This document shows positions 22,141-23,313 of a DNA stretch of 64,000 nucleotides, one piece after another. The notes below the pieces were generated by a model, which saw only the letters and a program-made list of their open reading frames with translations, did no database searches and had not been told where the DNA came from. Position 1 is the stretch's first letter, and every line of letters starts with the position of its first letter. Both the position numbers and the translations under genes were made by a program. Source of the stretch: a phage; the sequence record PZ495249.1; one strand, written 5' to 3'.

Positions 22141-22371
22141 TTCGTAAATGTCACGACTATCAGGATCGTGATACAATTCTGCAATTTCTTTACTTAAAGT
22201 AGCTCTCAGTATAATCCCTTTGTGCGAAACAATCAAGTAGATTTTCGTTTCACTTACATCTCCAGGGGCTAAGAGTTTACCTCTTACAATCCGCAAACGT
22301 TCTGCTGAATACCCTTCTTCGAGATCAGCCAACATATCTGCCAACGATTTAGAGAAAGTTAACCGATGCAA
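22126..22371 (-). CDS. hypothetical protein, 81 aa
   Basis: ORF between tRNA elements; weak RBS; its 3' end overlaps the tRNA at 22066-22140, so the call is tentative. Confidence 0.25.
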   Translation of the reverse strand: MHRLTFSKSLADMLADLEEGYSAERLRIVRGKLLAPGDVSETKIYLIVSHKGIILRATLSKEIAELYHDPDSRDIYEGHLA

Positions 22372-22672
22372 GGTATTACTTTCACGGTTTACAATTCCCC
22401 AGATACGATCATCCAGTTTGCAACTTCCTGACTCACAATTAGTCTATGACATTTTCGTTCTCCTGTTTGTTAATAAAACATATAAAGAAGGACAATGATC
22501 AGGTGACGTTTGCCAACGCCCTGCCGAAGTTCCGAAGATTGCAAGTCTTCGCTTGAACCGCATTTCATCAGGAGTAACGTATGATCAGTACGTTTTTCCG
22601 AAATGCTCACACCCCACGGTGCTGACAGTTTTAACACCAATCAATGCCTTTCTTTATATGTTCTGTCGATGG

Positions 22673-22746
22673 TGGAGGACGGTACGGGATTTTAACCCGT
22701 CTAAACTGGTTTGCAATCAGCCACATAGACACTCTGACAACCGTCC
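22673..22746 (-). tRNA. non-canonical tRNA-like element (anticodon possibly GCA, Cys)
   Basis: CCA; perfect 7-bp acceptor GGACGGT/ACCGTCC; perfect T-stem ACGGG/CCCGT with loop ATTTTAA; candidate anticodon loop carries TTTGCAA on the plus strand. Confidence 0.3.
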
Positions 22747-23005
22747 CATCGAAAAGCCAGTCTGTTCCTGGCTGTCACCACAGTTTTAACATTCTGTGGC
22801 TTGAACGTAGGAGCTATTCGATGCTGGCATTCTCCCGTAGCTCTGCCTTTATAGGGGTATGAACCCGTAGGGCGCACCTTATTGTTCCGTTCAAGGGATC
22901 ATGTTGAATGTTAACCTCTGCTTTTCCTTTAGGTTATTCGGAGAGGTACAACGATTGGGTTAGCGAAGCCCAAACACCTCCAGAGCAAACAACAATCTCC
23001 AAAAC

Positions 23006-23083
23006 TGGTGTGACTGGTGGGGCATGATCCCACATCATCTCCTTCACAGGGAGGAACGTTAACCAGCTTACGCTCACAGTCAC
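23006..23083 (-). tRNA. tRNA-His (anticodon GUG), non-canonical T-loop
   Basis: CCA; perfect acceptor GTGACTG/CAGTCAC; perfect T-stem GTGGG/CCCAC with loop GCATGAT; anticodon loop CUGUGAA. Confidence 0.35.
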
Positions 23084-23313
23084 CATTGTTTGTAGTGTCT
23101 CCAAGGCTTCCTATTCCATCCTAAGATGATCCACCCCTTCAACTAACGCGCTACATCCCTACGAAGAATGAACGTCATTCTCATCGTCTGAAATCTTGTT
23201 CAGAGCATACCACTGCGGAGATTAACCCGCTTCTCATCCTACGTGGTCGGTAGTAGTTGTCAATCAAACAACTCGTAAAATATATTCTCGTAAGAACACA
23301 TATTGCGAGAGTT

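Follow-up and report, generated by a model that had tools for sequence, protein, structure and literature searches.

A phage gene with an amber stop at its third codon, an overlapping suppressor transfer RNA gene and a covarying 192-nucleotide RNA in the tRNA array of a phi92-like myophage

The DNA analysed here, a stretch of 64,000 nucleotides (nt) referred to as the window (sequence record PZ495249.1), belongs to a phi92-like myophage that is most closely related to 'Sichuanvirus'-type Klebsiella phages of the Stephanstirmvirinae, with ~83–87% nucleotide identity. Positions 22141–23313 fall within a minus-strand array of transfer RNA (tRNA) genes and contain most of a conserved gene that is interrupted by an amber (UAG) stop at its third codon. 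Read 5' to 3' on the minus strand, the interval comprises tRNA-His, a conserved non-coding block, tRNA-Cys, a 192-nt structured RNA (element A) and the amber-gated gene, which is overlapped by a tRNA gene with the anticodon CUA (Table 1). We consider it probable that this is not a spacer and is instead a densely used, promoter-proximal segment of the tRNA operon, in which a protein-coding gene would be gated by the suppressor tRNA and element A would be excised as a stable RNA.

A stop at codon 3 makes the gene look broken. It begins ATG TCA TAG ACT AAT TGT, and both the ATG TCA TAG and the frame downstream of it are conserved in relatives. Between positions 22452 and 22126 it comprises 109 codons, and its product would have 108 residues, or 110 should read-through extend to the terminal TAG as well. 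The last 15–21 nt of the gene lie inside the tRNA(CUA) gene. A standard (code 11) scan for open reading frames (ORFs) shows just an 81-amino-acid (aa) ORF with a TTG start (22126–22371), and the view of the initial annotation that the interval holds no convincing ORF is true only of scans that halt at TAG, which pass over a conserved gene of ~330 nt at 22126–22452. Gene calls in databases that take TAG as Gln include 110-aa proteins (MSQTNCE...EGHLAQR), and the DNA beneath these proteins has TAG at both Q positions.

The coding evidence extends upstream of the TTG codon. Across 14 distinct close relatives, codons 4–27 show 684 synonymous versus 261 non-synonymous codon differences, and the changes at the three codon positions number 267, 148 and 795 (66% at position 3), the same pattern as in codons 28–108. 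No in-frame ATG, GTG or TTG occurs between the TAG and codon 28. Selection at the protein level acts on the gene both before and after the UAG. A decaying pseudogene, or a shorter 81-aa gene starting from the TTG at 22371 to which the upstream ATG-TCA-TAG is irrelevant, would agree with the code-11 scan and with the 69-aa versions annotated in relatives. Both are nonetheless very improbable, since the coding signature covers the 24 codons that separate the TAG from the TTG, these codons encode the conserved motifs of the family (C-x4-C-K and IWG), which occur also in members without any stop, and the only good Shine-Dalgarno (SD) sequence precedes the ATG. Moreover, the early TAG is kept across lineages down to ~33% identity, so decay cannot be its source.

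Homologues of the gene were gathered by DNA-level searches independent of gene calling (Logan, ENA, JGI, IMG/VR and GenBank) and span 33–94% identity. An in-frame TAG within the first 2–11 codons, mostly at codon 2–4, occurs in ~18 distinct lineages. The coding sequence opens with M-S-TAG in the window group and in loci L014, L048 and L050, with M-T-TAG in L008, L025/47/49, L043, L051 and L054, with M-A-TAG in L060 (same subfamily as L025), with M-K-TAG in L021 and with M-TAG in L024 and L044, while L046 and L055 have the TAG at later early positions. Cultured phages show the same arrangement: M-K-H-TAG in the T4-like Acinetobacter phage KARL-1 and 41 related records (42 in total), M-K-E-TAG in Pseudomonas phage Astolliot, and a TAG at codon 6 in Alishewanella phage Slickus01 and at codon 7 in Synechococcus phage BUCT-ZZ01. 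Other stops were seen as well, namely an early TGA in L027, a mid-gene TGA in L009–12, a mid-gene TAG in L026 and, in L053, L056 and Myxococcus phage Mx1, a TGA just upstream of the conserved motif, where the start is unclear. The first nucleotide after the TAG is A in at least 14 lineages and G in 2; a purine at this place is reported to favour suppression (Bossi 1983). An early UAG is a conserved trait of this family.

The tRNA gene that overlaps the 3' end of the window's gene is labelled 'Pyl' by ARAGORN because of its anticodon only, and in relatives it is annotated as tRNA-Sup-CTA or tRNA-Pyl. Within the fetched flanks, a CUA tRNA is present in 9 of ~18 early-TAG lineages versus none of 8 lineages without an early TAG (one-sided Fisher test, ~0.016 by hand calculation); the flanks are short (1.5–2.5 kb), so the absences are weak evidence. 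In the window group, L008 and L043 the CUA tRNA overlaps the gene or comes directly after it, whereas it is upstream of the gene in L050, L051/57, KARL-1, BUCT-ZZ01 and Astolliot (at ~370–600 nt) and in L021–23 (at 2.2 kb). CUA tRNA genes adjoin family members in many unrelated phages. The suppressor tRNAs are dissimilar in sequence between lineages, which suggests that the gene–tRNA pairing has been assembled repeatedly. Among the Stephanstirmvirinae loci fetched, those of FKP3, FBKp34 and Tr1 (L005, L006 and L007), which have no suppressor tRNA, also have no such gene. A blastn search of E. coli genomes with the suppressor tRNA gave no match. Comparison with E. coli tRNAs left its identity ambiguous, Gln-like or Lys-like, and no weight is placed on it. 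The CUA tRNA of KARL-1 (L061 1530–1604) is unannotated and that of Astolliot (L065 1638–1713) is annotated as tRNA-Leu; in both phages the adjoining amber-gated homologue is annotated in an N-terminally truncated form.

The amber-gated protein matches PHROG 29342 over residues 27–102 (E value 9.2e-8), and a profile search yielded 233 homologues; there was no match in Pfam and no homologue in bacterial genomes. The AlphaFold model, computed with a 50-sequence alignment, is a confident one, with a predicted local distance difference test score (pLDDT) of 85 and a predicted template modelling score of 0.75. Residues 1–12 are modelled as a disordered N-terminal tail with pLDDT <50, and the amber position falls within it. 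Family members lie in or beside tRNA arrays. Genes for a peptidyl-tRNA hydrolase and a TROVE protein adjoin the Mx1 homologue, and directly downstream of the BUCT-ZZ01 homologue ARAGORN calls a permuted transfer-messenger RNA (L062 2464–2882) with the tag ANDETFSMALAA. These gene neighbourhoods are circumstantial pointers to translation or tRNA biology.

The codon-3 TAG is most likely read by the neighbouring suppressor tRNA. According to the mechanism we propose, the segment would be transcribed within the tRNA precursor, and ribosomes would initiate at the SD-AUG and meet the UAG at codon 3. They would continue only once the phage suppressor tRNA had been made, matured and charged, and would otherwise release a dipeptide. 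As passage of codon 3 would need the phage suppressor tRNA, protein output would scale with suppressor activity and so report it, and the protein could be a built-in reporter or feedback part of phage-induced amber read-through in a genome that otherwise keeps UAG as a stop. With the stop at codons 2–4, failure would cost only a di- or tripeptide, and the inserted residue would land in a tolerant tail. In the window group, an RNase P cut at the 5' end of the tRNA (between 22140 and 22141) would strip the last four codons and the stops from the gene. A given copy of the transcript could then end up either as a mature tRNA or as a full-length message, not both. We favour a feedback or sensor role in the control of read-through, the genome still depending on TAG for termination.

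Several observations weigh against this interpretation. The anticodon stem of the suppressor contains, by our own reading of the sequence, two non-Watson-Crick pairs, and in roughly half of the lineages with an early TAG the short flanks available contain no CUA tRNA. Family member L058 is without any in-frame stop, and none was seen in L052 either, where the contig is truncated. TGA takes the place of TAG in L009 and L027, with no UCA tRNA nearby. For the protein, no structural or sequence relative of known function is detectable, so the feedback role is one that we infer. Finally, one subfamily (L025, L047, L049 and L060) has an ATG directly behind the TAG, and many other lineages have ATT or ATC there, as would be expected if Met-X were a start-stop mini-ORF, with termination at the UAG and a restart at the next codon that requires no suppressor. 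Only in lineages with ATG or ATY right behind the TAG is such re-initiation plausible. As the explanation for the family it is unlikely, since the TAG is followed by non-start codons in the window group (ACT AAT TGT), L008 (GTT), L024 (AAC), L055 (GCN) and Astolliot (AAT), and since it leaves the repeated linkage to CUA tRNAs unexplained.

Element A lies between tRNA-Cys and the amber-gated gene, beginning 7 nt after the CCA of tRNA-Cys and ending ~10 nt before the SD sequence of the gene. Its nine helices include a ~25-base-pair (bp) terminal stem (H1, H2) that closes a multi-branched core. The minimum free energy (MFE) is -69.9 kcal/mol, with a z score of -6.6 to -7.1 versus shuffles. RNAalifold, applied to 13 sequences of 71–91% identity, gave 59 pairs with 97.9% of the cells paired and double changes in 26 of the 59. 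When the partners were slid by 1–3 columns, the double-change pairs dropped to 0–7 and pairing to 40–53%, and 0 of 500 shuffles reached the observed values. The many G-U pairs fix the strand of the element, and its covariance model gives 232 bits for the minus strand versus 24 for the plus strand and detects one copy in the window. The fold on the minus strand is supported by covariation, and the surmise of the initial annotation that the spacer may hold another structured RNA is borne out. FBKp34 contains a divergent copy (44 bits), and no copy was found in distant lineages. A search of Rfam 15 with permissive filters returned for element A just a chance-level match to DUF2800 (15.3 bits, E value 7), the copies in relatives matched no Rfam family at E values up to 0.1, and pattern scans of IMG/VR for element A and for the tRNA-like RNA E1 described below found almost nothing beyond one contig.

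Element A is most likely a stable non-coding RNA excised from the tRNA precursor: its 5' end would be set by the 3' processing of tRNA-Cys, and the long terminal stem would protect it. Alternatively, and more tentatively, it may act in cis in processing or as a leader, for instance as an RNase III site, and so part tRNA-Cys from the downstream mRNA. The ~25-bp terminal duplex would suit such a role, as would the location, always between tRNA-Cys and an ORF whose SD sequence comes within ~12–25 nt. However, the covarying three-way-junction core and the invariant loops UGAUCAU, GUUAAAAC and UUGGCAA far exceed the needs of a cleavage site, and the FBKp34 copy is present without tRNA-Cys or the amber-gated gene. 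The two roles are not mutually exclusive. A relationship to Y RNAs was considered and discarded. YrlA (RF02553), which occurs with Ro/TROVE-type proteins, recalls element A in its long terminal stem and structured distal module, but there is no YrlA match at E values up to 10 in window positions 18000–24500, and none of the eight window ORFs scanned is a DUF2828 gene. In the tRNA array of the relative L034, a sub-threshold YrlA match (3226–3328; 41 bits versus a threshold of 69) adjoins a DUF2828/DUF7788 gene, which suggests a Ro-like ribonucleoprotein module that is apparently absent from the window's tRNA region.

The two tRNAs of the interval are located where the initial annotation had placed them, with the anticodons GUG (His) and, as it had tentatively proposed, GCA (Cys). 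In ARAGORN and Rfam covariance scans, the Rfam model RF00005 (threshold 29 bits) detected tRNA-His at 23009–23083 (44.6 bits, model positions 1–71, E values 3e-6 for the window and 6e-8 for the interval) and tRNA-Cys at 22676–22746 (42.1 bits, E values 1.5e-5 and 3e-7), and ARAGORN missed the window's tRNA-Cys yet called Cys-GCA in relatives. Each has an acceptor stem paired at 7 of 7 positions, a T-stem paired at 5 of 5 and an encoded CCA; the perfect acceptors and the CCA had been recognized earlier. The motif GTTCGAA, on which the first scan for tRNAs had been based, has 0 occurrences in the interval, and the T-loops then read as GCATGAT and ATTTTAA are the reverse complements of AUCAUGC (tRNA-His) and UUAAAAU (tRNA-Cys) on the RNA strand. 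The former departs from the canonical T54-Psi55-C56-R57-A58 in that A54 and U58 are swapped, which is a variant and no disqualifier; the same A54/U58-type loop occurs in the Phe (AUCGUUA) and Asp (AUCGUAA) tRNAs of the array, as had been noticed. The latter has A56 in place of C56 and reads UUAGAAU in relatives. In addition, tRNA-His has a G at position -1 (23084), but its discriminator is A73 and not the C73 of bacterial tRNA-His, while tRNA-Cys has a 7-nt anticodon loop with U33 (UUGCAAA), an irregular D-arm and the discriminator U73. Even with these deviant T-loops, both conform to the tRNA covariance model.

The acceptor and T stems of tRNA-Cys show compensatory changes among six phages, which marks them as parts of maintained genes, and copies of tRNA-His in relatives are 75–100% identical and annotated as such. 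In three Klebsiella phages, phi1_175008 (PP357458), KP13-26 (OP617743) and KP2025 (PP919962), both tRNAs are annotated at homologous positions of the array; they share anticodon and type of deviant T-loop with, and are 95–100% (His) and 83–84% (Cys) identical to, those of the window, whose Cys–His spacer is 259 nt long versus 9 nt in those phages. The supposedly hidden tRNAs are therefore genuine but ordinary, not new. They add little beyond showing that phage tRNAs whose T-loops have A54/U58 or A56 escape motif scans and even ARAGORN. It is scarcely credible that the interval is a non-coding spacer which holds only tRNAs and hides more non-canonical ones, for instance Trp or Glu, in its remainder, as had been suggested. 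Two tRNAs do occur, and since ARAGORN misses one of them, detectors can fail here; nevertheless, a full Rfam scan of the interval at E values up to 10 found no third tRNA. The Glu tRNA said to be unaccounted for sits at 19835–19922 (Glu-TTC; ARAGORN, and 48.8 bits in Rfam), a weak Trp-like candidate lies at 18540–18608, and what remains of the interval is accounted for by the coding-selected gene and a structured RNA that is not a tRNA.

The sequence between tRNA-His and tRNA-Cys (22747–23005) is an insertion that most relatives are without. The conserved block E2 within it has a 7-bp terminal pairing (TTGAACG/CGTTCAA) with one compensatory change; since it is unstable (z score -0.3) and its CCA is not conserved, it is not called tRNA-like. 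A sigma-70-like sequence, TTGACA-16-TAGGAT, that matches 10 of 12 positions is found at 23263–23236 on the minus strand. The 49-nt block upstream of it always comes after the CCA of the preceding tRNA or tRNA-like gene. In the window this preceding gene is E1, a 140-nt tRNA-like RNA. Its 7-bp acceptor (ACCAGGA/TCCTGGT) leads into G and CCA, its T-arm carries a GUUCGA loop, an ~80-nt extended arm replaces the D and anticodon arms, and there is an additional hairpin that is invariant. Compensatory changes affect 12 of its 49 pairs (six sequences), and E1 and E2 were the only elements to emerge from a scan for a 7-bp acceptor with NCCA. E1 is called by neither ARAGORN nor Rfam, and no Rfam family matches E1 or E2 at permissive thresholds in the interval and relatives. 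The T4 species 1 and 2 RNAs (rnaC and rnaD) are stable non-tRNA RNAs of ~120–140 nt with tRNA-like termini, encoded among the phage tRNA genes. E1 and element A are like these in setting and size only, and element A, unlike rnaC and rnaD, has no acceptor or CCA end. In relatives, the slot of E1 is taken by a tRNA-Sec-like gene of ~105 nt with a UCA anticodon (RF01852, 37–43 bits versus a threshold of 47). These genes (L029 1367–1470, L030 1750–1854 and L032 1389–1496) have a long variable arm and the loop CAUCAAA with A33, and may encode an opal-decoding tRNA.

Table 1 Features of the interval and its immediate surroundings.
Feature	Position	Strand	Evidence and remarks
Amber-suppressor tRNA(CUA)	22066–22140	-	ARAGORN 'tRNA-Pyl (cta)'; Rfam 60.2 bits; just outside the interval
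Amber-gated gene	22120–22452	-	ATG 22452–22450; first terminal TAG 22128–22126; back-up TAA 22122–22120
In-frame TAG (codon 3), followed by A	22444–22446	-	Sequence; kept in 14 distinct close relatives
Shine-Dalgarno AGGAG, 7 nt before the ATG	22460–22464	-	Sequence; AGGAGA conserved in relatives
Element A, conserved structured RNA	22474–22665	-	MFE, covariation, covariance model; between tRNA-Cys and the amber-gated gene
tRNA-Cys(GCA)	22673–22746	-	Rfam RF00005; annotation of relatives
E2, conserved non-coding block, 98 nt	22797–22894	-	86–90% identical in metagenomic relatives L034 and L018
tRNA-His(GUG)	23006–23083	-	ARAGORN (anticodon GTG); Rfam RF00005
Window-specific spacer upstream of tRNA-His	23084–23264	-	No similarity in relatives; z score +0.2
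49-nt block (AACTCTCG...)	23265–23313	-	92–98% identical in eight relatives; z score -3.0
E1, tRNA-like RNA, 140 nt	23314–23453	-	Just outside the interval; MFE -58.8 kcal/mol, z score -4.8

The array as a whole occupies positions 18450 to 23838 of the minus strand. ARAGORN finds 23 tRNAs in it and Rfam alone adds two (22676–22746 and 21779–21853); all 25 have an encoded CCA, and 20 of the 25 have canonical UUCxAxx-type T-loops. The tRNA at 21779–21853 (33.7 bits in Rfam, missed by ARAGORN) has the loop CUUCUAA, which suggests Arg-UCU, and a tRNA-Arg-TCT is annotated in relatives. The tRNA-Glu gene is 88 nt long, an unusual length for class I, and may hold an insertion. The element at 18540–18608 is weakly tRNA-like (26.8 bits with the tRNA-Sec model) with the anticodon loop CUCCAAA, and may be a degenerate tRNA for Trp, the sole amino acid otherwise missing from the array. 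A 124-nt stretch at 20972–21095 contains an uncalled GTTCGAA T-arm-like motif and a 6–7-bp terminal pairing (GCGAGG/CCUCGC; z score -2.2), and may be another long tRNA-like RNA. Small proteins are also interleaved with the tRNAs of the array, as in the case of a 60-aa ORF between tRNA-Met and tRNA-Leu (23559–23741) that is conserved, and called as a gene, in L018, L029, L031 and L032. The five features just listed are all on the minus strand.

The window follows the standard code: its long ORFs are intact under code 11, and several apparently real genes terminate with TAG. No second convincing TAG-interrupted gene was found in the 64 kb. On the plus strand, two TAG-terminated ORFs (61431–62108 and 62226–62867) share a frame, and amber read-through would pass two TAGs and fuse both; this could be a coincidence. 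In stop-codon-recoded phages with suppressor tRNAs, which read TAG as Gln (code 15), many structural and lysis genes are recoded (10.1101/2021.08.26.457843; PMC9523058). The present system resembles these phages in that a phage-encoded tRNA(CUA) is there and would be needed for a gene with an in-frame TAG in a standard-code host, so that the suppressor gates expression. It differs from genome-wide recoding in that the window has one TAG gene instead of many, the rest stopping at TAG, and in that the TAG is nearly fixed in position (mostly codon 2–4) in one small protein family that occurs across unrelated phage families, often beside the tRNA. Engineered feed-forward gates of synthetic biology that are based on amber suppression (PMC7969014) likewise tie output to co-expression of a suppressor tRNA through an early TAG; unlike those, the window's system is natural, and its gene and tRNA physically overlap. 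The literature searched, of which coverage was incomplete, so that this is absence of evidence only, contains no description of the amber-gated family or of Stephanstirmvirinae suppressor tRNAs. The family and its linkage to the tRNA look new within suppressor-dependent expression.

The amber-gated gene bears on the question of why lytic phages that use the standard code carry suppressor tRNAs, to which it provides a concrete client that is conserved across phage families. The only evident route to its expression is amber read-through, and the question thereby becomes testable. The findings also bear on annotation, since pipelines systematically truncate or miss the amber-gated gene and sometimes miss or mislabel CUA tRNAs, as in KARL-1 and Astolliot. 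A strongly covarying 192-nt RNA without an Rfam family and a 140-nt tRNA-like RNA indicate that the structured RNAs encoded in phage tRNA arrays outnumber those so far catalogued. A bolder proposal, which we put forward as a possibility of rather low probability, is that PHROG 29342 is a dedicated partner of phage amber-suppressor tRNAs, a UAG-gated protein that measures suppressor activity and feeds back on read-through as part of a shared 'suppression control module'. If so, the target of the protein might be release factor 1, the suppressor tRNA or UAG-paused ribosomes. The pair would then be a compact, repeatedly assembled module of Straboviridae, Kyanoviridae, Stephanstirmvirinae and other standard-code phages, and the 192-nt RNA and the 140-nt tRNA-like RNA would be further undescribed parts of the manipulation of tRNAs and translation by phages.

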